Sequence record: OZ346187.1
Source of the DNA: a phage
DNA length: 64,000 bases
Reading direction: 5' to 3' (one strand)
Shown: positions 1,593 to 64,000 of the stretch, piece by piece
Layout of the letters: each line of letters opens with the position of its first letter
Numbering within the stretch: the first letter of the stretch is position 1
The notes under the pieces: model-generated
What the model saw: only the letters and a program-made list of their open reading frames with translations
Databases searched by the model: none
What the model was told of the DNA's origin: nothing
Program-made: the position numbers and the translations under genes

Positions 1593-2357
1593 TTGAAATT
1601 CATCTACAAAGAACACTACCACAAAGGTGTTGTGTGGAGTCTATTTGACGGGTCTGGTGGTGCAGTTATTGACTGGGCAAAAGCTGGGTACCTGTGCCTG
1701 TGCTTTAATGCAGAAGGTGCTGACCACGGCAGTTATGCAGAGGTGATAACCGATCATCCTAACATTCACTATGTGGATTATTGGATTGACCCATGGTTCC
1801 CTCAGGAAACTTTTTGCATGTATCCAGCTCCAGACTTTATTCTTGCATTTCCTCCGTGCACGCATTTAGCGGTATCAGGTGCTGCACATTTTAAGAAAAA
1901 GCTGGCTAAGGATCCTTTGATCCAAATTAATGCTGTAAAGGATGCTCGGGTTGCGGAAGAGTTGGGAGAGATTTACGATTGCCCGTGGCATGTAGAGAAT
2001 CCTGTAGGGGTTATGTCCACACTGTGGCGAAAACCTGATTACCGTTTTCATCCTTCGGATTATGGTGGGTATTTACCGGAGGATGATGTAAACCCCTGGT
2101 TTCCTGAATTTATAGCTCCACGTGATGCCTACCCAAAAATAACTTGCGGCTGGATAGGCAATGGATTTATAATCCCGGCCACAAAACCTGTCCCGCAAAT
2201 AGTTGACGCGGTTAGCGGGTATTCCATGCAACACGCCAAGCTGGGTGGAAAGAGTGCAAGAACGAAGATGATCCGAAGCCTCACGCCACGTGGCTGGGCA
2301 AAAGCCGTATTCTTAGCAAACGAGCCTGTAGTAAGGAGCAGAATTAATGGGAAGTAA
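1593..2357 (+). CDS. putative cytosine-5 DNA methyltransferase-like protein
   Basis: LFDGSGG (motif I-like), FPPCTHLAVSG (PC motif IV-like), WHVENPVG (ENV motif VI); probable TTG start after GGAGA RBS; start uncertain. Confidence 0.4.
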   Translation: MKFIYKEHYHKGVVWSLFDGSGGAVIDWAKAGYLCLCFNAEGADHGSYAEVITDHPNIHYVDYWIDPWFPQETFCMYPAPDFILAFPPCTHLAVSGAAHFKKKLAKDPLIQINAVKDARVAEELGEIYDCPWHVENPVGVMSTLWRKPDYRFHPSDYGGYLPEDDVNPWFPEFIAPRDAYPKITCGWIGNGFIIPATKPVPQIVDAVSGYSMQHAKLGGKSARTKMIRSLTPRGWAKAVFLANEPVVRSRINGK

Positions 2358-4425
2358 ATTTATGGCATCTGCATACAACCGTTTCGGTGAGCCAAACCCG
2401 AAAGCAATTAAGTATAAAAGTGGGGGAAGTGTGAAACGAGACTATCGTGATGAAAAAGAGGTTGAAACTGTAGAGACTGTTTTAGAAAATACTAAAATCG
2501 TCCCTGTCCCACAACAAAATATCGGTCTGATGGCTGCACAATATTTTGGTGTGCGATCAGCATTGTCCCAAGAAGACGGTGTGACAGTCACTGCAACATA
2601 TTTCCCATATTACGACCGATACGGAAATCTGTCCGGTTTCAAAAAGCGTGACTGGACTATTCCTAAAGAACAAAGGGGCCACTTCTCCGTTGTTGGCATA
2701 GTAAAGGCCAACTCCCAGATGTTTGGTCAAAAGCTGTGTGCATCTTCCAACAACCGTAAGCAGATTAACGTTTGTGAGGGAGAAGGTGATGTTATTGCAG
2801 CATGGCAGGCTGCATATCAGATACAAGTAAAAGGGATTCTCACCAACGCTAAAGCCCCGGCAAAGGTGAAGCAGTGGGCTAAAGAGGTCCAGGACGGGAT
2901 CGACGCAGTTATCAACGGTGGTGATCTGGCAGGAAAACCCTGCCTGCCTTTTGTTGGAATTAACTGTGGATGTGCAAACGCAGTAGATACTTTTGCAAAC
3001 AATGAGAAGTTTATCCGTAGCTATGGAACAGTTGTGCTGGCAATGGATAACGATGCAGCTAACGAGGTAGAGAAGCAAAAACACGTCATTAAAGGTGTTG
3101 AGGCCACGCACAATATCGCAGCATTTTTGATGGCTGATAACGTTTACCACGTAGAATACCCTGGTGAAGTAAATGACCCTGACGGGGTAAAAGATATCCG
3201 TGACATGCTGAAGGCTAAAAAGCTGGAAGATATTGTCAACATGTTCCGGCACCCTGTTAAATATGTGCCTGATGCTGTGTCGGATTTAGAAGACTTCTCT
3301 ATCGAGTCTTTGCGGAAAAAGACTTCCAACGGGGTAGATATCAGCGCAGAGTTCCCAAAACTGCAAAAAATGCTAAAAGGCTTGCACAAAGGGACACTCG
3401 TAATGCTTACAGGGCCATCAGGGGGCGGTAAAACAACTGTAGCTAAAAAACTGGAACATTGTATTGCAAGATACCTAATGGACCCGACATGCCCGAAGGC
3501 TGATGACTATGAAGAGGATGATCGTCTATGTATGATCCATCTTGAGGAGGACCCAGAGGAAGCAATTAACTCCTTGTATGCAAACCAGTTAGGGTTTGAT
3601 GTTAAAGAGTTTGTTGAAGATCCTAGCCAGTTTTTAACTGATCAAGAACACGCAGAGATTCACCAATCATGGGCAAAAGCTGGAAAAATCAAAGTGTTCA
3701 AACATTTCGGATCTATTCCGGTGGACGAGTTGATTACCAAGCTTAAGCAAATGGTTTGCCTGTACCATTGCCGTTATATTGTGCTGGATCACCTATCCAT
3801 GGTAATTTCAGGGCTTAATGTTAAGGATGAGCGAAAAGAACTGGACATGGCTATGACTCAGCTGGCTGCGTTTTGTAAGCAGTTTAACGTGTTTATCTTG
3901 GTGATCGCTCACCTCAAACGTACAGAGATTGTGCCTCCTAAGGACAAGGATGGTAACCCGTTACCTTTCTGGTATCCTGTGCGAAAAGAGAATTTGCGAG
4001 GATCGGCGGGGCTTGAACAGTTGAGTTGGGTAGTCATAGGTGTCGAGGCCGAAGAAATGGTGGATCGTTCTCGTGGACGTGTCCGTCTGGTAGGTCTTAA
4101 AAACCGTCCAGCAAAAACTCTAGGTATTGCTGACACTTTGGTTATGGACCCGCACACAGGTAAGTTCCATGATGCCAGTAATTGGTACTGGGACAAAGAA
4201 ATGCAAATGTTTACAGACGGAGAAGGTGGGGAGGTTGTTTGGAGACCTCAGGCTATGTTTGAGGATCAGGAGCATGCAGTTGTAGAAACACCTATGGGCA
4301 AGGTTGTGGCTGATAAGGTTGTAACTCCTACTGTTAAGCCTGTTGACACGCAGGAAGACCTCCAGTACGATGATCCATCCTCTGACCCGGTCCCTGGTTT
4401 TGAGGATGATGAAACGCCTTTTTAA
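2347..4425 (+). CDS. primase-helicase (TOPRIM primase fused to DnaB-like helicase)
   Basis: TOPRIM-like CEGEGD and VLAMDNDAANE; Walker A GPSGGGKTT; Walker B IVLDHLS; 692 aa. Confidence 0.7.
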   Translation: MGSKFMASAYNRFGEPNPKAIKYKSGGSVKRDYRDEKEVETVETVLENTKIVPVPQQNIGLMAAQYFGVRSALSQEDGVTVTATYFPYYDRYGNLSGFKKRDWTIPKEQRGHFSVVGIVKANSQMFGQKLCASSNNRKQINVCEGEGDVIAAWQAAYQIQVKGILTNAKAPAKVKQWAKEVQDGIDAVINGGDLAGKPCLPFVGINCGCANAVDTFANNEKFIRSYGTVVLAMDNDAANEVEKQKHVIKGVEATHNIAAFLMADNVYHVEYPGEVNDPDGVKDIRDMLKAKKLEDIVNMFRHPVKYVPDAVSDLEDFSIESLRKKTSNGVDISAEFPKLQKMLKGLHKGTLVMLTGPSGGGKTTVAKKLEHCIARYLMDPTCPKADDYEEDDRLCMIHLEEDPEEAINSLYANQLGFDVKEFVEDPSQFLTDQEHAEIHQSWAKAGKIKVFKHFGSIPVDELITKLKQMVCLYHCRYIVLDHLSMVISGLNVKDERKELDMAMTQLAAFCKQFNVFILVIAHLKRTEIVPPKDKDGNPLPFWYPVRKENLRGSAGLEQLSWVVIGVEAEEMVDRSRGRVRLVGLKNRPAKTLGIADTLVMDPHTGKFHDASNWYWDKEMQMFTDGEGGEVVWRPQAMFEDQEHAVVETPMGKVVADKVVTPTVKPVDTQEDLQYDDPSSDPVPGFEDDETPF

Positions 4426-4487
4426 TGTTTAACAAAGAGTGGGAGGGGTAGTACAACCGCCTCCCCTTTAAGGAGAACGTTTATACT

Positions 4488-7400
4488 ATGAGTATGTGGA
4501 ATTTTGACTTTGAGGCCTCAGGTCTTCTGGACGAGGAAGATCTTTACTACCATTGTGGCCTGTTTAAAGAGTTGAATAAAAATAATTTTATGTTGTTTTT
4601 GCCTATCAATGATAGATCTCATTACAGTGAAGAGGAGGTTGAAAAAGCAAAACAATTTATGCTGGCAAAGCAAGATATCTATCCTAGCTGCTCTGTCCGT
4701 ATTGCGGATTTCAGCCAGCTTGAATGGTGGTTAACCGGGAACTCCGATTGGTCACCCACATCATTAAGTTGTCACAACTGTTTTAGTTATGACTTTATCT
4801 TGATGGAGAAGCTGTCTGGTATTCATTTTGATATGTTCCGTGATCCCAAGTGTATGGGGACAATCAATAATCATCAGGTGAACCTGTTCGACACTCTGCC
4901 AATGAGTCGTATACTATGGCCCGACAGACCGTTACCTAAAGGATGCCCTGATTCTGTATACAATCCTGTTACAAAACGTATGCAGCAGGTAGGTCCTCAT
5001 GGCCTAATGGCGTGGGGGTACGCTTTAGGAAACCAGAAGGTTAAAATTGATGACTGGAGAAATTTACCTCTGTGGAAGTATGTTGATCGTGTATTCGAGG
5101 ACGTTATCATCCAGGAGCTGCTCTGGAAAGAGCTGGTAGCGGAATCAAAAGGTGTATTCTACGGCAAATCTGACATGCAGAACTTTATGTACGATCCAGC
5201 CAAAGAGAAGCCGAAAGGGTTCAAGAAGATTACCTGGAAGAATGCATTACGCCGAGGCATGCTGCAGCACTTCCTGATGGAGCTGCAGGCCCGTCAGGGT
5301 GTATACTTCGACATAGATGGAGCTATTGCTTTACGTGACCGTTGCGATGCGTGGATGAAAGAAATCGCTGATCGTGTTGAACCACAACTACCTTTAAAAG
5401 AGCTGTCAATGTCTCAGCGGCCCAAGTTCCCTGAAAAGCCGTTTAACCAAGACGGGACAATCTCTAATAATGGTTGGAAATGGTTAAAAGATAAGCTTGG
5501 CTATCCTGTAGACATGAGTGCTTTAGAGTTCAAAGCCCCGCCTAAGCGAGCATTTACCTCTACAGGAGATGTCAGCAAGATGGGGATAAAATGGTGTGAA
5601 GAGATGGGCTGCAAAGACCCCGATAAGATGGCTGATTTCTTGAGAGGCTATATTAAGGGCACCTCCACACCACAACCCTTACCTAAAGAGCTGATGGATC
5701 AGGCAATAAGTGATCTGCAGCAGAAGCGAATGCCTGACTGCAAGATACCTATGAAAATCAGCAATCAGGACGACATCAAGCGATACCTAATCAGTGCTGG
5801 TTGGCTCCCAACAATGTGGAGAACTAAAGATGTAACTAAAGACAGCAAGAAGAAAGCTTTACCTGATGCAGATGTTGATGCACGAGTATATGCATATATG
5901 GACGAGCTTTTGGAGTCAGAGTATTGTGACCTAATTATCAACTTCTGGAACAAAACTGATGCTAAGTTCCAGACAACCGTGCACAAGTTCCGAAGCTTTC
6001 CTAACTCCGAAAGGATTAAAAAGGAAGTATTCGGGAAAATACGTAGAAAAGCCAGGGCACTTATTACTTCTCCGCAACTGAAAGATACGTTTGGACACCT
6101 ATGCCCAAATCTTGAAAAATTGAACGGAGAGATGGCTAAAGATATCGTCTTGTGGTTATCATTGCGAAACCGCAGATCGGTCCTTGATCCAATCAAGGAG
6201 GATAAGGTTGATACTGGTCTTCTTAATCACCCACGTTTGAAGATTGACCATAAGCTTCCTGCTAAAAGCTCTGGATTAACAAACACTTCCAGACAGAAAC
6301 ACAGTATTTGTGCAAACATGCCTAAACCATCTCCTAAAGTGGTTATGGGTAAAGAGATGCGTAGTCTGTGGGGTGTTCCTCCGGGATACTTTGAGATCGG
6401 TATTGACGGGTCCAACTTAGAGCAGCTTATCGGGGCTTGGGGTGCCTTTGAGTTCGACAACGGCCTGTATTATGATGTTGTAAGTAATGGCGATGCACAC
6501 TGTTATTCAGGAGATACACAAATTCTCACGGAGAAAGGGTGGGTGAGGTTTGAAGATCTTGATCCGGGAACACAAGTGTTCCAGTACGATCACAACACCT
6601 CGTCAATGAACCTTGTTACTCCATTAAATTACGTTAAGCGTAGTTATTGTGGGGATATGTATCATTTCCACAACAGTAGTGTGGATTTTATGGTTACAGA
6701 TCAACACAGGATGCTGACTGTGGATCACAGAAGCAATAAATTGTTTGAAGATTTGGCAAAAGACCTGAAAGCAGGTAAAGGGTCTAATTCAGGAAGAAGG
6801 TTTATCCATGCGGCAGAGTTTTATGGGAATACAACCTTATCTCCTGCCCAGGTTAATTTGCTTATTGCTATTCACGATGATGGGCACTTGCATACAAATA
6901 AGGACGGCAGCATCGTGTGCAGGATTCAGGTCGGAAAGGGAAGAAAAGTTGCAACGCTTTTAGATACTTTTTCTGCTCTAAGCCTTAGTTATGTAGAGCA
7001 GAGCGGGAAAACCACAAAAGGGGGCTTACTGGCGAGAAGGTTCCAATTCCACGTTCCGTCCTGGGTATTTGAGTTTTTGGACAACAATAAGGATTTCACC
7101 TATAACCTGATGAACCTTGATAAAGAATCTAAAAACCTGTTTATAGCTTCTTTATCTAACTGGGACGGGTGGGTATCTTCCGAAGGTGGAAAGGTTGCTT
7201 ACTACTCCCAGGCCGAGTGCAGGAAGAAATCTGTAGAGGTGGTGTCTGCGCTGGCTACTCAGTGTGGTTTACGGAATAATACGGTGGCGATTCACAAAAA
7301 AGGTCGTGCCGTGCAGCACAGAATCACAATTGGTAGCAAACAGAGAGCAGGGTTGCTGACACTATCTAAAGAGTCTGTCGAGGTGAGCGGTTCTTTGGTT

Positions 7401-7880
7401 TATTGCGTTACCGTCCCTTCTGGAGCAATCATTGTGAGAAGGAATGGTAAAGTGGCAGTGTGCGGTAACTGTAATAACGCCAAAGCTTACTCTTCTGTAG
7501 CAGGCAAGGAGATTTCCCGTAACGATGGTAAACCTATCACGTATGGGGTTATGTATGGGGCACAAAAAGATAAAGTTGCAGATATGCTGGACATCTCCCC
7601 AGAGTTGGGACAAAGGGTAATCGATGCACTCTGGGATGCCAACCCAGGTCTTAAGGGGCGCAAAGAGGATCTGGAGAAATTCTGGGAAGCAACAGGTAAG
7701 AAGTTTATCTACTCTTTTGATGGTCATGCTATCTGGACCCGATCTAAACACTCTTTACTTAATGCATACCAACAAAATGGCGGTGCATCGTTGTGTGACT
7801 TAGTTGGAATACTCATGCACCACCAGATGGTGAAGCGTGGGTGGTACGATGAAGGTGTTCGTCGTATTATTTATTACCAT
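4488..7880 (+). CDS. DNA polymerase, family A (T7 gp5-like), exon 1, containing an intein
   Basis: N-terminal FDFEASGL...YHCG exonuclease motif; motif A-like IDGSNLEQL; motif B-like RNDGKPITYGVMYGAQ; ORF stop at 7884-7886 is assigned to the intron. Confidence 0.8.
6501..7469 (+). mobile_element. intein with LAGLIDADG-type homing endonuclease, in-frame between polymerase motifs A and B
   Basis: Starts CYSGDTQILTEKG (intein block A); two LAGLIDADG-like motifs (LLIAIHDDGHL, FIASLSNWDGWV); ends ...VAVCGN followed by Cys at 7470; 969 nt, frame preserved. Confidence 0.65.
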
Positions 7881-8132
7881 AAATAACATTGTGGCTTCAT
7901 AGAGTAATCTATGTCGAATAACCTCTTTAACTGCGGGAAGCCTAAACCTTATGGCAAGGTAATCCGCAACGAAGCGCTCAAAAGAGCGAACGCTCAGAGG
8001 CCATTCCGAAAGGAAGTAGACCAGCAAGTGCGGTCGAAATGGGAGGATTCCTGTGGTTGCTTATCATAGGAATATGAGATGGTCCGATCCTACGTGAAAA
8101 CGTATGGCTATGCACGTAATGGTGCGGGGTAG
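7881..8132 (+). mobile_element. ORF-less group I intron in the DNA polymerase gene
   Basis: P-like CTGCGGGAAGCC and Q-like AATCCGCAACG elements; exon ends in U (7880) that can pair with GUGG 11 nt downstream (P1); ACGU-GAAA-ACGU hairpin near 3' end; last nt G (8132); joining 7880 to 8133 keeps frame. Confidence 0.55.
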
Positions 8133-8510
8133 CTTAACGACCTACCTGAACTATTGGATGAGTACCAACTTCAAGTGCCTGACACACCGAAGTATAAGAC
8201 TGTGTACACCTTCGACACAATTGAAGAACTGGAAGCATTTAAGGCAGAGCAGGAAGCCAAACTTCATGTGTTCGACGGTCATAAGTACAAAAAGGCACGC
8301 AAGGATGAGGACGGAAACGAAGTGGTTGACAGAGACGGAAACACGGTGTACGATCCTATCCTGAACGATGACGGAAAGCTTGAACTTATCTGGAGCCCTG
8401 TGGGTGAAATGGTGGTACATTGCTTCTGGCAAGCTTCTAAAATGATGGGAGTCCCGTTCCAGATCACAGGTGAATACTTGTGTGGTCGTAATTGGGGTGA
8501 TTGTCACTAA
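8133..8510 (+). CDS. DNA polymerase, family A, exon 2 (C-terminal)
   Basis: Frame open from 8133; C-terminus ...CGRNWGDCH resembles the Pol I-family terminus (GENWDQAH-like). Confidence 0.55.
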   Translation, partial: LNDLPELLDEYQLQVPDTPKYKTVYTFDTIEELEAFKAEQEAKLHVFDGHKYKKARKDEDGNEVVDRDGNTVYDPILNDDGKLELIWSPVGEMVVHCFWQASKMMGVPFQITGEYLCGRNWGDCH

Positions 8511-34505: not shown

Positions 34506-35768
34506 TCAGCAACTACAACTTCCATAGTGCTTAACTCGCTCGATAACTTCCGCTTGCTTACCTTTATTGTAAGGACGGGAGTTAGGACTGGAAAGGTATC
34601 CAGACACACGTCGAATTACACTGATCGTTCCCTCTTCATGGTTTCCACACTCTGGGCATACAAAGCCTTTAGCTGTTGCACTGAACTCACCAGAGAAACC
34701 ACACTTGAGACATTTATCCACAGGTTGGTTAATACCAAAATACATAATATGTTTATACCCGAAGTCAACAAGAGCCTCTAAAGCATCCAGGTTGTTTTTC
34801 AGGTTAGGTGTCTCTACGTATCCAATGTTGCCACCAGAGGAGATCATAGCAAAACCTTCCTCATACTCCCACTTATCAAAAGGAGAGCTATTTATCCACA
34901 CTGGCTGATGGAAACTGTTGGTGAGATATTCATGCTCGTGCTTTAACACTTCTGGATATTCACGATCCAGACAGGTTGCAGCTTTATAGCATAGACTCTC
35001 AGAAGGAGTGCCGTACAAGCTAAATGCTAGTCTACTTTCCTTCTTGTATCGCTCACAAGCATCTCTCATGTGCTGAAGGATTCCAAGAGCTAAAGCCTTG
35101 TCACCTTCTCTGCCCAAAATCTGACAGGTTTCATACACACCAATATACCCAATACTGATGGAAGCGTACCCGTCATAGAAGAGTTTATCAATACTTTCTT
35201 CGGGATCCAGGCGAGCAAGAGCGCCTTCACACCACATGATGGGGTTCTGCCCTGCCTTTGTTCCTTTTAGACGGTTAACCCTTACAAGGTGAGCCTCGTA
35301 TGCAAGATCCAAGTATTCGTCAAGAACTGCAAAGAAATCAACACATTCCGTCTTAGCTTTTGCCGCAATCATTGGCAGGTTAAGGCTAACAACACCCAAG
35401 TTGAATCTGCCGAGGTATTTCTCCTCACCTGTTTCCAAGTCATTGTATTTGCTAAGAAAACTCCGGCAACCCATACTCGTTACTTTGCCATCTGTCGAGC
35501 CTGTCACTTTACGATTTAGTGGAACAGAAACAAAGTCAGGATAAATCCGCTCTGCAGAGCATTCCAGAGCTAATCGTTTCAAATCATAGTTAGGATCTCC
35601 GGGGTTCATGTTGACACCCTCTTCTAGGAAGAACAGCACTTTAGGGAACACAGGTGTGATACGTTCTTCACCAAGACCCATTTTGTGGACTTTCAAGTAA
35701 TTTTTGGTAATCATTCTACCAAAGACCGAGGTATCCAGTCCTAAACTTAATGTGATGAATGGAGTCTG
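34506..35768 (-). CDS. nrdD: anaerobic ribonucleotide reductase NrdD, exon 2
   Basis: Frame is open upstream of the ATG to 35768; starts QTPFITLSLG...; C-terminal glycyl-radical-like RRVSGYL and Cys pairs. Confidence 0.7.
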   Translation of the reverse strand, partial: QTPFITLSLGLDTSVFGRMITKNYLKVHKMGLGEERITPVFPKVLFFLEEGVNMNPGDPNYDLKRLALECSAERIYPDFVSVPLNRKVTGSTDGKVTSMGCRSFLSKYNDLETGEEKYLGRFNLGVVSLNLPMIAAKAKTECVDFFAVLDEYLDLAYEAHLVRVNRLKGTKAGQNPIMWCEGALARLDPEESIDKLFYDGYASISIGYIGVYETCQILGREGDKALALGILQHMRDACERYKKESRLAFSLYGTPSESLCYKAATCLDREYPEVLKHEHEYLTNSFHQPVWINSSPFDKWEYEEGFAMISSGGNIGYVETPNLKNNLDALEALVDFGYKHIMYFGINQPVDKCLKCGFSGEFSATAKGFVCPECGNHEEGTISVIRRVSGYLSSPNSRPYNKGKQAEVIERVKHYGSCSC

Positions 35769-36565
35769 CTGTCTCCTCCCTGTGTTTCCACAGGGCCAGA
35801 CTATCTATTACTCTACTTCAATAAGATAATAACCCTTTATTGTGAGATGCTTACCTTCGGCATTTCCTTCGATAGCCCTGTGAACGTTACCTACGTTCAA
35901 ATTTAAGGCTTTTGCACAGGCGTAGAGTGAAGGATATTCACCCACCAAGATTTTCCCTTTGTATGCCTGCACTTTCCTATAGCACTTACCTGGACAAAGT
36001 CCTGTTCGGAAAGCATGTCTCTTATTATCTTCCGGCAAAACCCACTCTAGGTTAGACGGATGATCATTCAATGTATTGCCATCTTTATGATTCACTTCCC
36101 AGTTTTCAGGGTCTTCTGGGACATCTGGCAAACAATACAAGGCAACAACCCTTGAGGTTTGGATTCGAATCTTTTTACCTTTGTGGTTGAAAGAGTACAT
36201 ATAACGGCGTTTAACATGCTTATTACCTTTTCCATAACCTCCCCACAATATTGGGTGCAGCATTCCACGTTTTCCGTATACGTTTCCAACTTCATCAATC
36301 ACATAGTTTGATTCTTCACCATTAAGAATGATCTTTTTCATAGAGCCTCTCCATTTCGAAGTTAGTATTTCAACTAACCCCTACACTACTTGGTTCAGAA
36401 ATGTTTGTCAAGCATCTCTGCCTTTCGTTAGTCGTTACAACCGTTCCAACTCCTGTAAGAACTAGTCACGGGATTGGCATAGCTTTCGCCTTAGCGTTCC
36501 CCGTTAGCCGGATTTACCGACCCCTCTTATGAGGTTAGGAGAGTTTTACAACGGCCAGTTTGTTA
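35769..36565 (-). mobile_element. group I intron in nrdD carrying an HNH homing endonuclease gene
   Basis: On minus-strand RNA the exon 1 end AACGGU pairs with GCCGUU 8-13 nt into the intron (P1, U.G at the splice site); Q-like AAUCCGGCU, R-like GUUGUAACGACUAAC, S-like AUAGAUAGUCU overlapping the HEG stop; CCCUGUGG-AAAC-ACAGGG hairpin; intron ends in G; splicing gives ...SVNG|QTPF... in frame. Confidence 0.7.
35808..36341 (-). CDS. HNH homing endonuclease (intron-encoded)
   Basis: NHKDGNTLNDHPSNLEW HNH motif; 177 aa; lies inside the nrdD intron. Confidence 0.7.
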   Translation of the reverse strand: MKKIILNGEESNYVIDEVGNVYGKRGMLHPILWGGYGKGNKHVKRRYMYSFNHKGKKIRIQTSRVVALYCLPDVPEDPENWEVNHKDGNTLNDHPSNLEWVLPEDNKRHAFRTGLCPGKCYRKVQAYKGKILVGEYPSLYACAKALNLNVGNVHRAIEGNAEGKHLTIKGYYLIEVE

Positions 36566-37426
36566 ACCGTTGACAGAAGTTAACGTATTGATTTGATAGA
36601 GCAAAGTCTGCATGCTGTCAAATACGTCTTTATCTGTCATTTGCATTGCAACAGTCTCAGCATCTGGCAACCAATGTTCCTGGCAAAATTTAAGGTTCTT
36701 CTCATAAGTCGCCTCAGCATACTGTGCCAAATAATGGTCAATATGGCTCATAGTCTGACCCCCATATTGAGCACTAGCTACTGCACTAGAGATTTGGCTA
36801 AGGATTGTTGTTGCAACCCCTATTGACTTCGGCTTACTGACATGGGCGTTACCAATGTTGAATCCGTTTTCCAACATATCTGGATAATTTACCAAACAAC
36901 AGTTTGTTAACGGACTGATCAAGTAGTCAAGATCATGCACATGGATGAAGCCTTTATTGTGCTCTTCTGAGACACGGTCTGGCAGGATCTGTGTTGATGC
37001 AAGGTGTTTGCTAAGGATGCCTGCAAGCAGGTCACGATGAGTGTGTACATGATTGGTAGGCTTATTTGCGTTTTCTTTTGTAAATTCATCACAAGTTCGA
37101 TCCAAGAAGCCACTAATATCTGCAAGCAGTTTTCCACCTGCCTCTCTGTTATTATCTCTTGTCTGTCTATACTGGATGTATTCTCTGGCTGCACATTTTA
37201 AACCCATATCCATAAGAGCATCTTCAACAAGGATATGGATATTTTTTACAGAGATCGTGCACTGGTCGGTTGGTAGATTGTTAGCAACAACTTCATTAAC
37301 CGCACAAGCGATCCGGTAAGCTTCTTCTTCAGTATGTCCAGACTCAAGTAAGGCGGACTCTGCCGCCTTGATCACCTTAATTCCGTTATAGACCTCTTCT
37401 CTACCGTCCCGTTTTACAACTTTCAC
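36566..37426 (-). CDS. nrdD: anaerobic ribonucleotide reductase NrdD, exon 1 (ATP-cone, N-terminal)
   Basis: N-terminal ATP-cone-like MKVVKRDGREEVYNGIKV; ends ...SVNG at the proposed 5' splice site; ORF stop 36563-36565 is intronic. Confidence 0.7.
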
Positions 37427-61103: not shown

Positions 61104-61162
61104 TGTAAACATGGTCTCCCACCTTTTCTGGCGGCTAAGGTGTAAAAGAAAGCCACCCAGTG

Positions 61163-61237
61163 CCCTGTTAGCTTAGTGGATAAAGCAGCGGCCTTCTAAG
61201 CCGTTGACACTGGTTCGAGTCCAGTACGGGGTGCCAA
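61163..61237 (+). tRNA. tRNA-Arg (anticodon TCT)
   Basis: Hand-folded cloverleaf: acceptor GCCCTGT/ACGGGGT (with G.U pairs), anticodon loop CTTCTAA, T-loop GGTTCGAGTCC, CCA encoded. Confidence 0.65.
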
Positions 61238-61241
61238 ATTG

Positions 61242-61327
61242 GGGAGTTATCCCGTAGAGGTAGCGGTGTAGACTGTAAATCTATTGTCATTGCGACTCGG
61301 GTGGTTCGACTCCACCACTCCCCACCA
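61242..61327 (+). tRNA. tRNA-Tyr (anticodon GTA), long variable arm
   Basis: Acceptor GGGGAGT/ACTCCCC, anticodon loop CTGTAAA, T-arm GGTGG-TTCGACT-CCACC, CCA encoded. Confidence 0.65.
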
Positions 61328-61441
61328 AATTTATATTTTTAGATGCATAAATAATACAGATAATGGCATTGATATTTATCGTCGTTTATACTAGTCACTA
61401 ACTGCTCGAAAATCAGTGTCATTATCAGTATAATTTATAAA

Positions 61442-61532
61442 GGAGGGTAGGGAGCAATGGTGCTCAAGCGGTCTTGAAAACCGTCCCGTTGAGGATGACT
61501 CGATGATGGTTCGATTCCATTACTCTCCGCCA
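61442..61532 (+). tRNA. tRNA-Ser (anticodon TGA), long variable arm
   Basis: Acceptor GGAGGGT/ACTCTCC, D-stem GAGC/GCTC, anticodon loop CTTGAAA, T-loop GGTTCGATTCC, CCA encoded. Confidence 0.6.
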
Positions 61533-61630
61533 CATTGTTGACCTTGTAATTAAGCGAAAGCCGGAAGCAGAACCGGATTATCAAATGTTACAGTCGTCAT
61601 CGCCGACTAGCAACATGGTCAACATACTGA

Positions 61631-61729
61631 GCTAGGTAAGCCCTTTGGCAAGGGCGAGGATTTTTAATCCTGAAAATAGACGAGGTAGTCGTTGAATACA
61701 TAGGTGGTTCGATTCCATCACCTAGCACC
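61631..61729 (+). tRNA. atypical tRNA-like gene (~99 nt), anticodon ambiguous (most consistent with TTT)
   Basis: Perfect 7-bp acceptor GCTAGGT/ACCTAGC, D-arm GCCC-TTTGGCAA-GGGC, T-arm GGTGG-TTCGATT-CCATC; anticodon stem imperfect with loop TTTTTAA; ~29-nt extra region before the T-arm; 3' end ACC then T (CCA not fully encoded). Confidence 0.35.
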
Positions 61730-61734
61730 TTTTT

Positions 61735-61810
61735 GCTGATGTAGCACAATCGGTAGTGCAATTGATTTGTAATCAATAGGTTGTAGGTTCAAGTCCTGCC
61801 ATCAGCACCA
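61735..61810 (+). tRNA. tRNA-Thr (anticodon TGT)
   Basis: Acceptor GCTGATG/CATCAGC, D-arm GCAC-AATCGGTA-GTGC, anticodon stem ATTGA/TCAAT with loop TTTGTAA, CCA encoded. Confidence 0.7.
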
Positions 61811-61811
61811 A

Positions 61812-61886
61812 GGCCCTGTAGCTGGAAGGTTCAAGCAAGCGACTCATAATCGCCAGACGGTGGTTCAATTCCACCCAGGGCCACCA
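61812..61886 (+). tRNA. tRNA-Met (anticodon CAT; initiator, elongator or Ile-lysidine type not resolved)
   Basis: Acceptor GGCCCTG/CAGGGCC, anticodon loop CTCATAA, T-arm GGTGG-TTCAATT-CCACC, CCA encoded. Confidence 0.65.
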
Positions 61887-61897
61887 AATAGTAAATA

Positions 61898-61974
61898 CTC
61901 CGCGTAGCTCAGCTTGGTAGAGCGCCTGATTTGGGATCAGGAGGTCGAGTGTTCGAATCACTCCGTGGAGACCA
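61898..61974 (+). tRNA. tRNA-Pro (anticodon TGG)
   Basis: Acceptor CTCCGCG/CGTGGAG, D-arm GCTC-AGCTTGGTA-GAGC, anticodon stem CCTGA/TCAGG with loop TTTGGGA, T-arm GAGTG-TTCGAAT-CACTC, CCA encoded. Confidence 0.7.
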
Positions 61975-62290: not shown

Positions 62291-62342
62291 GTATTAGTCT
62301 CCTTTTAGTTAGTTTCGATCTATTTAGGTTACTCAATTTTAA

Positions 62343-62377
62343 CCCGCCCCGTTAGCTGTATAGCTGCGGGGTTTTTT
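62343..62377 (+). terminator. rho-independent terminator
   Basis: GC-rich hairpin CCGCCCCG...CGGGG followed by TTTTTT. Confidence 0.55.
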
Positions 62378-62395
62378 CGTTTCTGGAGCCTTAAA

Positions 62396-62794
62396 ATGAT
62401 TTCAGTTTTAACATGGCTGAGCAGGTATAAAGGGATCATAAAAGGTTTAGTTTTTGCAGCTGCGATAGGTACAGCTTATCTTGGGGCCGTGTATTGGTTT
62501 AACTCTAAGCTTAATGATGCCTACCAAGAAGGTGTGTCAGCAACAGAGTTAAAGTGGGAACGGATCCTTGATCAGCAACAAAAGCAGGCCGACAAAATTA
62601 AAATGGGCCACGCAGAGGAGGTTAAAAACCTTGAAAAATCCCTTTCTGATCTGCAGGATAAATTAAATATAGCTGAGAAGGCAGGTAAAGAAAAGCAGAT
62701 TATCTACCTCCAGTCACCTGAAGGCAAGAAGTCAACACTTCCTGATCAGCTTATAGATATTTATAATGAGAGTATCAATCAGGAGGATCAATGA
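62396..62794 (+). CDS. inner-membrane spanin (i-spanin, Rz-like)
   Basis: N-terminal TM segment GLVFAAAIGTAYLGAVYWF followed by charged coiled-coil; followed directly by a lipoprotein gene. Confidence 0.6.
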   Translation: MISVLTWLSRYKGIIKGLVFAAAIGTAYLGAVYWFNSKLNDAYQEGVSATELKWERILDQQQKQADKIKMGHAEEVKNLEKSLSDLQDKLNIAEKAGKEKQIIYLQSPEGKKSTLPDQLIDIYNESINQEDQ

Positions 62795-63078
62795 GAGTTG
62801 CTACACTGTTTATTGTGTGCTTGTTATTATGTGGGTGTGCAACCAGCGTTGAGAGAGAATACAAGATTGACCCTCCTGATGTAGGAAGGTTGATTGTTAA
62901 ACCCCCGGAAGGTGCCATGAAACCACCTGCTAAAGCTATGCCTTTGAAGAAAGGTGCGCCAGATGCAGTGAATTCTGGCATTATGAGGGATAATAATCTG
63001 TCTTGTAGCAATGATAGAGCTAAATTGATCATTTTGCAAGACTATATTAGAACACTTTTTCCAAAGGAGAGAGGTTAA
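62791..63078 (+). CDS. outer-membrane spanin (o-spanin, Rz1-like lipoprotein)
   Basis: Signal peptide with lipobox LLCGC, proline-rich mature region; start overlaps the i-spanin stop. Confidence 0.6.
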   Translation: MRVATLFIVCLLLCGCATSVEREYKIDPPDVGRLIVKPPEGAMKPPAKAMPLKKGAPDAVNSGIMRDNNLSCSNDRAKLIILQDYIRTLFPKERG

Positions 63079-63503
63079 TGTCTAAGATTTACGGACCGTG
63101 TTCTGAAAAGCAGAAGATGATCCTAGAAAACGATGCAGATATTTTGGTAATCGGCGGTGCCGCAGGGTCTGGCAAGTCGTTCCTCTTGCAATTGATGCCA
63201 CTTAAAATTATTGATGACCCCCACAGCTCTGTGGTTATGTTCCGAAGAACAACCCCACAGTTGGAAGGTGAGGGTGGATTATGGCCTAAAGCAGTAGCTA
63301 TTTATAGTGATCTGCCTGAAAACATTAAGCCAAAGTTTAGAGAGAAGGATCATAAGTTCATTTTTCCACGGTTTGATCCGAACACTGGCAAGTGGGATAG
63401 AAGCAAAAAGGGAGCTGTTGTAAAATACTGCCACATGGAGTATGTACAAGATAAGCTTAACCATCAGGGGCTTGAGTACACCATGGTTTGCTTCGATGAG
63501 GGT
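63078..63503 (+). CDS. terL: terminase large subunit, exon 1 (ATPase N-terminus)
   Basis: Walker A GGAAGSGKS, Walker B MVCFDEG; ORF stop 63504-63506 falls immediately after the proposed 5' splice site (exon ends in U). Confidence 0.5.
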
Positions 63504-64000
63504 TAATTTGTAGCTCTCGTAAAACCTCCCTAATTGCGGGGAAATCTTTATTATTGACACCACCAACCTGTCATGGTAACATGACAGAGGCTTCGAAGAG
63601 AGATCGAAGGTATGGTAACAGTGTGTTAATTTAGATAATCCGCAGCGAAGCATCCGAGAGGATGAACGTTCAACGACTAGTCGAAAGACGTAGAATCAAG
63701 CGATTCGAAACGGGAGGGTGAATGTGTAATACTAAGAAATGTATGGATTGCCAAAGAGTTCTACCTATTGATGATTTCTTTTTATCATCTAAGAGCAAGG
63801 ATGGATACTCAGGTACATGCAAGGAATGCTATATGTACTACAGGAAGGGTGGATCTCGTAAAAACAAAAATATGGTTAAGAGAGATGATGCAGCATTGTT
63901 TATTCAAGACTTGCTGAAGAAAGGTGAACTTTTTGAATGCAAATCTTGTCATGAAAGTATGCTCGCTGATAGTTTTTACACAAAACGTGACTATGGTAAA
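63504..64000 (+). mobile_element. group I intron in terL (3' end beyond window)
   Basis: P element AATTGCGGGGAAA (63531), Q element AATCCGCAGC (63640), R element GTTCAACGACTAG (63682), followed by an RBS and ORF. Confidence 0.6.
63722..64000 (+). CDS. intron-encoded zinc-finger protein, probable homing endonuclease (3' partial)
   Basis: ATG after GGGAGGGTGA RBS inside the intron; CxxC ... CxxC and CKSCH cysteine pairs; continues past window end. Confidence 0.4.
   Translation, partial: MCNTKKCMDCQRVLPIDDFFLSSKSKDGYSGTCKECYMYYRKGGSRKNKNMVKRDDAALFIQDLLKKGELFECKSCHESMLADSFYTKRDYGK

Follow-up and report, generated by a model that had tools for sequence, protein, structure and literature searches.

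What interrupts the gene for the terminase large subunit (terL) at the end of the phage sequence in record OZ346187.1, and how could a complete protein still be made from it? We analyzed a window of this record, the whole stretch of 64,000 nucleotides (nt) read on one strand, in which the terL open reading frame (ORF) at 63078-63506 (+ strand) encodes only 142 residues. As a first-pass annotation of the window had pointed out, this ORF ends three codons past its Walker B motif (CFDEG), the C-terminus reading ...MVCFDEG followed by a stop in the ORF list. The answer we favor, with a probability of about 0.93, is that terL carries, directly after its Walker B codons, a mobile group I intron of the type (IA) known from T4 and SPO1-like phages, and that this intron would be self-splicing and would spread by endonuclease homing.

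By its sequence, the window comes from a Vequintavirus, i.e. an rV5-like Escherichia coli phage of the myovirus type. The region from 62300 to 64000 is matched at 94-100% identity by 122 phage records, nearly all of them Escherichia phages of the genus Vequintavirus, and the last 1605 nt of the window (62396-64000) are the same, base for base, as positions 1-1605 of phage MaxBurger (MZ501093). The window ends within the interruption; what is said below about the parts past 64000 is inferred from MaxBurger and from other relatives.

A terL exon that can be joined to its continuation in relatives

Exon 1 of terL (63078-63503, +) consists of 142 codons, the last of which is GGT, and contains both Walker A (GAAGSGKS) and Walker B (MVCFDE). 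Its match to the Pfam profile Terminase_6N (25.6 bits) covers profile positions 2-104 of 215 only, and exon 1 is thus a truncated ATPase domain, corresponding to the front half. On this point we concur with the first-pass annotation, which had judged the ORF too short for a terminase. The encoded residues are 100% identical to residues 1-142 of the TerL protein of JeffSchatz, an intronless phage. No other terL-like sequence was found in the window by tblastn, ruling out a second complete terL there, which was part of what the first-pass annotation had named as capable of overturning its proposal.

A synthetic query spanning the exon 1-exon 2 junction revealed three kinds of Vequintavirus allele. 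In phages such as JeffSchatz, FFH2, nimi and BP9, terL is uninterrupted and aligns as a single piece. A second group, including slur12, JEP1 and O157 typing phage 5, has an interruption of 319 nt, corresponding to an ORF-less intron, and a third, including MaxBurger, JES2013, ECP26 and others, has an interruption of 883 nt, corresponding to an intron with an endonuclease gene. Aligning one allele of each kind set the intron boundaries. The 5′ boundary lies between 63503 and 63504, where ...GATGAGGGT is followed by the intron; the first three bases of the latter are TAA (63504-63506), in frame as a stop codon after GGT. At the 3′ boundary in relatives, the intron ends ...ATAAACG and exon 2 begins ACACAATTCGAATGG. 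The window thus holds the 5′ 497 nt of the intron (63504-64000, +), as delimited by the Rfam match described below and by alignment with the intronless allele. In relatives bearing the homing endonuclease (HE) gene, the whole intron measures 883 nt and would end, with a terminal G, at window-equivalent position 64386.

When exon 1 of the window was joined in silico to exon 2 of MaxBurger, the product was a protein of 515 amino acids (aa), identical at 515 of 515 positions to the uninterrupted JeffSchatz TerL. The Terminase_6N match became contiguous (72.2 bits, profile positions 2-211 of 215) and a Terminase_6C nuclease domain was added downstream (27 bits), giving the spliced protein both the ATPase with its Walker A and B motifs and the C-terminal RNase H-like nuclease of a terminase large subunit (PF03237 and PF17289). 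Exon ligation behind the terminal G of the intron restores the reading frame, as read on the relatives' sequence rather than on the window itself.

The Rfam family RF00028 (group I introns) matched 63494-63720 with 41.3 bits and an E-value of 4.4e-9 (local scan) or 4.1e-7 (whole window); this is the covariance-model scan that the first-pass annotation had suggested as a check. The gathering score of RF00028 is 50 bits, and a default Rfam scan of the window at gathering thresholds missed the terL intron; it was the local E-value scan that picked up the match. The window copy falls below the threshold because it lacks the ribozyme's 3′ third, which lies past the end of the window. The full-length MaxBurger intron, identical over the shared part, scored 48.7 bits (positions 1099-1941; E-value 9e-11), its score being lowered by the penalty on a P8 insert that is 564 nt larger. 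The ORF-less 319-nt allele has the same core, with 3-4 substitutions outside P8, and reached 84.3 bits, above the gathering score. The covariance model, the intronless and ORF-less alleles of relatives and the exact in-silico exon join all bear out the group I intron called in the first-pass annotation.

Distribution of the intron among near-identical phages

The exon junction region was found in about 119 Vequintavirus records (≥90% identity), the 5′ half of the intron in 53 of these and the endonuclease ORF in 30, where it is always intact and 96.6-100% identical at the nucleotide level. ORF-less alleles account for about 23 of the 53 intron-bearing records. Such a patchy presence of an intron among near-identical genomes is as would be expected of a mobile intron in a homing cycle.

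In the 319-nt form, a short P8 hairpin is found in what is otherwise the same ribozyme, about 98% identical to the HE-bearing form outside P8. The P8 stem itself is wholly different between the two, UAAGCG/CGCUUA in the ORF-less form vs. UGAAUGUGUAA/UUACACAUUCA in the HE-bearing form, with pairing in both. Because the P8 helices are unrelated while the remaining ribozyme is so similar, we tentatively suggest that neither form arose from the other by simple deletion, and that an existing ribozyme may have gained or lost the endonuclease gene as a mobile cassette of its own, one that brings its own stem and takes its Shine-Dalgarno sequence from P3. This remains the less probable side of the question. 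If it were true, the circulation of all three alleles side by side among over 100 near-identical coliphages would make a tractable natural system for the homing cycle, suited also to a possible intron-mediated competition between co-infecting phages. The existence of three allelic states in near-identical, easily grown E. coli phages is in any case convenient for tests of homing and competition, and opens no new question.

The ribozyme core and selection on the RNA

In the covariance-model alignment, P1 (63498-63518, +) is formed by the exon sequence GAGGGU and the intron bases UA, which pair with the internal guide UAGCUCUC (63511-63518); at the 5′ splice site, the U.G wobble is provided by U63503. 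The 5′ strand of P3, CCUCCC (63525-63530, +), pairs with 63712-63717 according to both the covariance model and RNAalifold. The stretch from 63532 to 63646 (+) folds, in the RNAalifold prediction from six alleles, into J3/4, P4, P5 and an extended P5a-c, with P4 pairing 63534-63540 to 63639-63645 and with hairpins P5b at 63568-63587 and P5c at 63589-63611, all on the + strand. The core elements that the first-pass annotation had recognized downstream of the terL ORF are the + strand motifs AATTGCGGGGAAA (63532-63544), AATCCGCAGC (63637-63646) and GTTCAACGACTAG (63668-63680). The P6a hairpin, CAUCC-GAGA-GGAUG, lies at 63651-63664 (+); its tetraloop is GAAA instead of GAGA in two alleles, with the GNRA pattern kept. 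J6/7 and the 5′ strand of P7 (GUUCAACGACUAG, 63668-63680, +) are near-identical to the RF00028 consensus GUUCAaAGACUA, and within them GACUA (63675-63679) pairs with UAGUC past the window, in the partner sequence AAGAUAUAGUC at MaxBurger 1909-1919.

Two further + strand hairpins were read from the sequence, P7.1 (GUC-GAAA-GAC, 63680-63689) and P7.2 (GAAUC-AAGC-GAUUC, 63693-63706). Phage introns of subgroup IA typically have such hairpins between P7 and the 3′ strand of P3, and by this feature, identified by inspection only, we infer that the terL intron belongs to subgroup IA. No P2 was aligned by the covariance model in either the window or the MaxBurger copy. The 3′ strand of P3, GGGAGG (63712-63717, +), doubles as the Shine-Dalgarno sequence for the endonuclease ORF, and the 5′ strand of P8, at 63719-63729 (+), contains its start codon; the 3′ strand of P8 is at window-equivalent 64292-64302 in relatives. 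From these relatives, the sequence past 64000 is expected to continue with the P8 3′ strand TTACACATTCA, AAGATATAGTC, the P9 hairpin and the ...ATAAACG end of the intron, with exon 2 ACRCAATTCGAATGGGAG following about 387 nt downstream. The catalytic core (P3-P8, P4-P6, P7, J3/4, J6/7 and J8/7) is thus complete, its 5′ strands and P3-P6 being present in the window, and the P8 3′ strand, J8/7, the P7 3′ strand and P9 being seen in relatives only.

The P5 extension also contains a sigma-70-like site at 63554-63582 (+), consisting of TTGACA, 17 nt and TG-TAACAT (10 of 12 matches), about 140 nt before the endonuclease start. At this position slur12, which is ORF-less, has TTAATA; two other ORF-less alleles keep TTGACA. 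The number of sigma-70-like sites in the region was not above that in shuffled controls, and we claim no promoter at 63554-63582.

The comparison of alleles yielded signs that the RNA itself matters. At position -1 of the insertion site, a T was present in 6 of 6 intron-bearing alleles and a C in 6 of 6 intronless alleles. Both make a Gly codon, and among these 12 alleles this is the sole flanking site perfectly associated with the intron. The U is required for the conserved U.G pair of P1 by which the 5′ splice site is marked. Among the six alleles, five of the pairs that RNAalifold predicted in the 5′ core (214 nt) vary and none is broken: C69-G80 is replaced by U-A in rV5, a compensatory double change, and in P5a of slur12 two changes keep pairing (G.U to A-U and C-G to U.G). 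At the level of sequence comparison, selection on the RNA is indicated by the U at -1 together with the substitutions that keep pairing. The two unrelated P8 stems, each able to pair, and the retained GNRA tetraloop point the same way.

We propose that the intron would be transcribed as part of terL and that ribosomes would halt at the TAA that opens it. The RNA would then fold as a P1-P9 ribozyme, the guanosine cofactor would attack after U63503, and exon ligation would give the mRNA for a 515-aa TerL. In a mixed infection, the endonuclease would cut an intronless terL close to where the intron inserts, and the intron would be copied in during repair templated by the intron-bearing genome.

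The intron ORF encodes a putative homing endonuclease of the endonuclease VII/HNH family

Downstream of the core, GGGAGG is followed by an ATG at 63722 that opens an ORF running out of the window (63722-64000, +), of which the first 93 of 196 codons are visible; the ribosome binding site and the CxxC-rich ORF leaving the window were thus correctly recognized in the first-pass annotation. Its description as a zinc-finger ORF is fair for the visible part, which has CxxC pairs at residues 7-10, 33-36 and 73-76, and does not hold for the protein as a whole, an endonuclease VII/HNH protein whose nuclease domain (residues 110-192) is encoded past the window. In MaxBurger the full ORF (1327-1917) encodes 196 aa and sits in the loop of P8. 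A zinc-ribbon-like module, C-x2-C ... C-K-x-C, occurs twice in the protein, at residues 1-45 and 66-110, and presumably binds DNA.

The complete MaxBurger protein matched Pfam PF02945 (Endonuclease_7) over residues 110-192 with 76.1 bits (cut-off 23.6). The 93-aa fragment of the window had no Pfam match above threshold; its sub-threshold hits to Cytochrome_C7, LIM and Stc1 were uninformative and were not used. The PHROG endonuclease VII families matched both the whole endonuclease and the window fragment. Among structures in the PDB, Hpy99I (3fc3) was matched by residues 57-192 (E-value 9.6e-6) and T4 endonuclease VII (1en7/1e7d) by residues 117-177 (E-value 5.7e-4). The catalytic D-H..H..N residues and a Cys4 zinc site are present, CAIC...CVDHDHKTGAVRGLLCDKCN aligning with the motif of T4 endonuclease VII and Hpy99I, as do the DHDH...CN motif and the zinc-binding cysteines. 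By these matches the intron ORF encodes an endonuclease of the endonuclease VII/HNH (beta-beta-alpha-metal) type; its putative homing role is suggested by context, not by homology.

The translation signals of the endonuclease are embedded in the ribozyme, the Shine-Dalgarno sequence being the 3′ strand of P3, the AUG lying in the 5′ strand of P8 and the UAG stop in the 3′ strand of P7. Folding of the ribozyme and translation of the endonuclease should therefore exclude each other: the folded ribozyme would hide the translation signals, and a translating ribosome would unfold the core. Coupling of this kind between folding and translation is known from T4 introns.

Another endonuclease VII-family protein of 201 aa is encoded in the window at 46994-47596 (- strand; PF02945, 31.7 bits). 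It has only the DHDH..G motif in common with the intron endonuclease and is apparently free-standing.

Alternative explanations for the interruption

The alternative that survives best, which we nonetheless consider unlikely, accepts splicing and regards the endonuclease as a decaying, inactive passenger of an intron that is inherited vertically and has lost homing. The ORF-less alleles are compatible with this, being expected late in a homing cycle, and no endonuclease activity data were found in the literature. A decaying gene is at odds, however, with an ORF that is full-length in 30 of 30 carrying records, with so little divergence among them and with its catalytic and zinc-binding motifs intact. 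Intronless targets are also still common in close relatives, and selection for homing can therefore persist.

It is much less probable that a free-standing endonuclease gene has split terL, with the two products made separately and assembled as a two-piece terminase, without splicing. Split genes of this sort have been reported for some T4-like phages, several GenBank/RefSeq records give two 'terminase large subunit' coding sequences (CDSs) around an 'endonuclease VII' gene, and a second product could start at an in-frame ATG that lies in exon 2, 11 codons past the junction (MaxBurger 2025). What decides against it is that a complete group I core flanks the endonuclease ORF and that the ORF-less 319-nt form sits at the same site, which makes the interruption independent of the ORF. 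The U at -1 and the pair-preserving changes point to selection on RNA, and the split would fall within the ATPase domain, three residues past Walker B. An intein or an assembly artefact, for which nothing speaks except that the gene is interrupted, is excluded by the sequence: the insert opens with an in-frame TAA and has no ORF continuous with terL, and the same insert occurs in dozens of independently sequenced phages.

The self-splicing, homing intron is thus the reading we retain, and some observations weigh against it. Neither the window copy nor the full-length HE-bearing copy quite reaches the Rfam gathering threshold; the window ends before the ribozyme's 3′ third, the splice site at the intron's 3′ end, terL exon 2 and the part encoding the nuclease domain; sequence variation among the available alleles is small, the support from covariation amounting to a few events; and we found no splicing or cleavage experiments on this intron in the accessible literature. 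In its favor, the phages with an interrupted terL are viable isolates, their records annotate a joined terL, and the terL intron of CB7, a phage of the same subfamily, splices (see below).

Other interrupted genes and the surroundings of terL

The first-pass annotation had counted three intron-invaded genes in the window. This stands for terL and the DNA polymerase gene and is less clear for nrdD. The polymerase intron matched RF00028 at 7871-8106 (+) with 64.7 bits, above threshold, and has no internal ORF. It lies at the 3′ end of a DNA polymerase ORF of 1132 aa (4488-7886), with a short ORF (8104-8364) downstream, and in some relatives this site is occupied by a larger insert that includes an HNH endonuclease. 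The nrdD gene, on the - strand, is in two pieces, one N-terminal (36566-37426; Pfam NRDD profile 1-154) and one C-terminal (34509-35714; profile 180-562), with an HNH endonuclease ORF of 177 aa in the gap (35808-36341, - strand). The group I match in this gap is weak (35778-36065, 23.3 bits, E-value 0.002), and a third intron is probably present in nrdD.

Upstream of terL, seven tRNA-like genes (61162-61974) are followed by a small ORF, the i-spanin gene (62396-62794, +), the o-spanin gene (62791-63078, +) and directly by terL, all on the + strand. One of the tRNA-like genes, at 61631-61727 (+), is 97 nt long and has a long variable arm (Rfam tRNA, 35.5 bits). ARAGORN gave it no name and reported a four-base anticodon; the covariance-model alignment places UUUUUAA in the anticodon loop. 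The rV5 record does not annotate it at the equivalent place.

On the 5′ side of 62396-64000, the window and the MaxBurger record, as mapped, are no longer collinear, and the window may belong to a different isolate that is closely related. A circular permutation of MaxBurger (from position 73952 of the record onward) was considered for the upstream part of the window and rejected, as what is annotated in that part disagrees with the polymerase region of the window. No single phage record matched the last 20 kb of the window at 100%. About 18-20 GenBank records labeled 'Campylobacter phage' (MG065653-MG065690) are at least 97% identical to the window across terL and 20 kb upstream, which suggests that these are mislabeled or contaminating phages in that data set.

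Comparison with known introns and endonucleases

The terL intron of this phage group is already known, being both published and annotated in databases. The rV5 paper has a section 'Introns in terminase', describes terL in three segments, one with a homing endonuclease, and acknowledges D. Shub's help in finding where the intron lies (Kropinski et al. 2013, Virol J 10:76, PMC3606486). The rV5 record (DQ832317) accordingly has a three-part joined terL CDS. Intron 1 of rV5 shares with the window the gene, the site (after the GGT of ...FDEG) and the ribozyme, its 5′ 215 nt being 98.6% identical; it is 319 nt long (2501-2819 in the rV5 sequence) and ORF-less, with a P8 of TAAGCG/CGCTTA, unlike the HE-bearing P8 of the window. 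The rV5 terL (2075-4920) has a second, downstream intron with an unrelated HNH endonuclease (ORF 65, 231 aa) that is lacking in MaxBurger, the nearest relative at this end of the window, and there are therefore at least two independent terL insertion sites in this phage group. The BASEL phages MaxBurger, DrSchubert, WalterGehring and HeinrichReichert are identical or near-identical to the window here, MaxBurger showing no difference over the covered region, and are annotated with a joined terL CDS and a 196-aa 'putative homing endonuclease'; their intron boundaries were set via comparative genomics (Maffei et al. 2021, PLoS Biol). A published structural analysis of this intron was not found in the accessible literature.

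Automatic pipelines still split terL into two 'terminase' genes and an 'endonuclease VII' or 'recombinase' gene, and the present analysis has some value for annotation: the correct product would be one 515-aa TerL, made after RNA splicing. The terL intron would also add to the cases in which an essential phage gene is occupied by a mobile group I intron.

As to the ribozyme, the T4 td, nrdB and nrdD (sunY) introns and the Bacillus SPO1-type introns likewise have P7.1/P7.2 and a core near the Rfam consensus AAUUGCGGG, AAUCCGCAGC, GUUCAACGACUA, AAGAUAUAGUC; the RF00028 consensus is built largely on introns of this type. The in-frame stop at the intron start and an endonuclease ORF looped from a peripheral helix, with its translation signals in the structure, are further points of likeness, and short BLAST matches of the P6-P3′ core were to introns of Bacillus and Staphylococcus phages. 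Unlike in these introns, the host gene encodes a terminase and does not belong to nucleotide metabolism or encode a polymerase, and no P2 was aligned. The endonuclease also differs, I-TevI and I-TevII being GIY-YIG enzymes and the window protein an endonuclease VII/HNH protein with N-terminal Cys4 modules. Mikkonen and Alatossava reportedly described, in 1995, the interruption of terL by a group I intron in Lactobacillus phage LL-H. This intron, the classical case in terL, is cited as the precedent in the rV5 paper (PMC3606486), and the intron in the terL gene of Pectobacterium phage CB7 (Certrevirus, Vequintavirinae), which carries an HNH gene, has been shown to splice by RT-PCR (PMC7344957). 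Both CB7 and LL-H have an endonuclease-bearing group I intron in terL and are precedents of kind, not necessarily of the same element. The closest parallels to the protein itself come from enzymes with other tasks. T4 endonuclease VII, which resolves branched DNA, and Hpy99I, a restriction enzyme, share with the intron protein the C-terminal beta-beta-alpha-metal motif and the zinc-binding cysteines; the intron protein is distinguished from both by its location in an intron and by its two extra N-terminal Cys4 modules.

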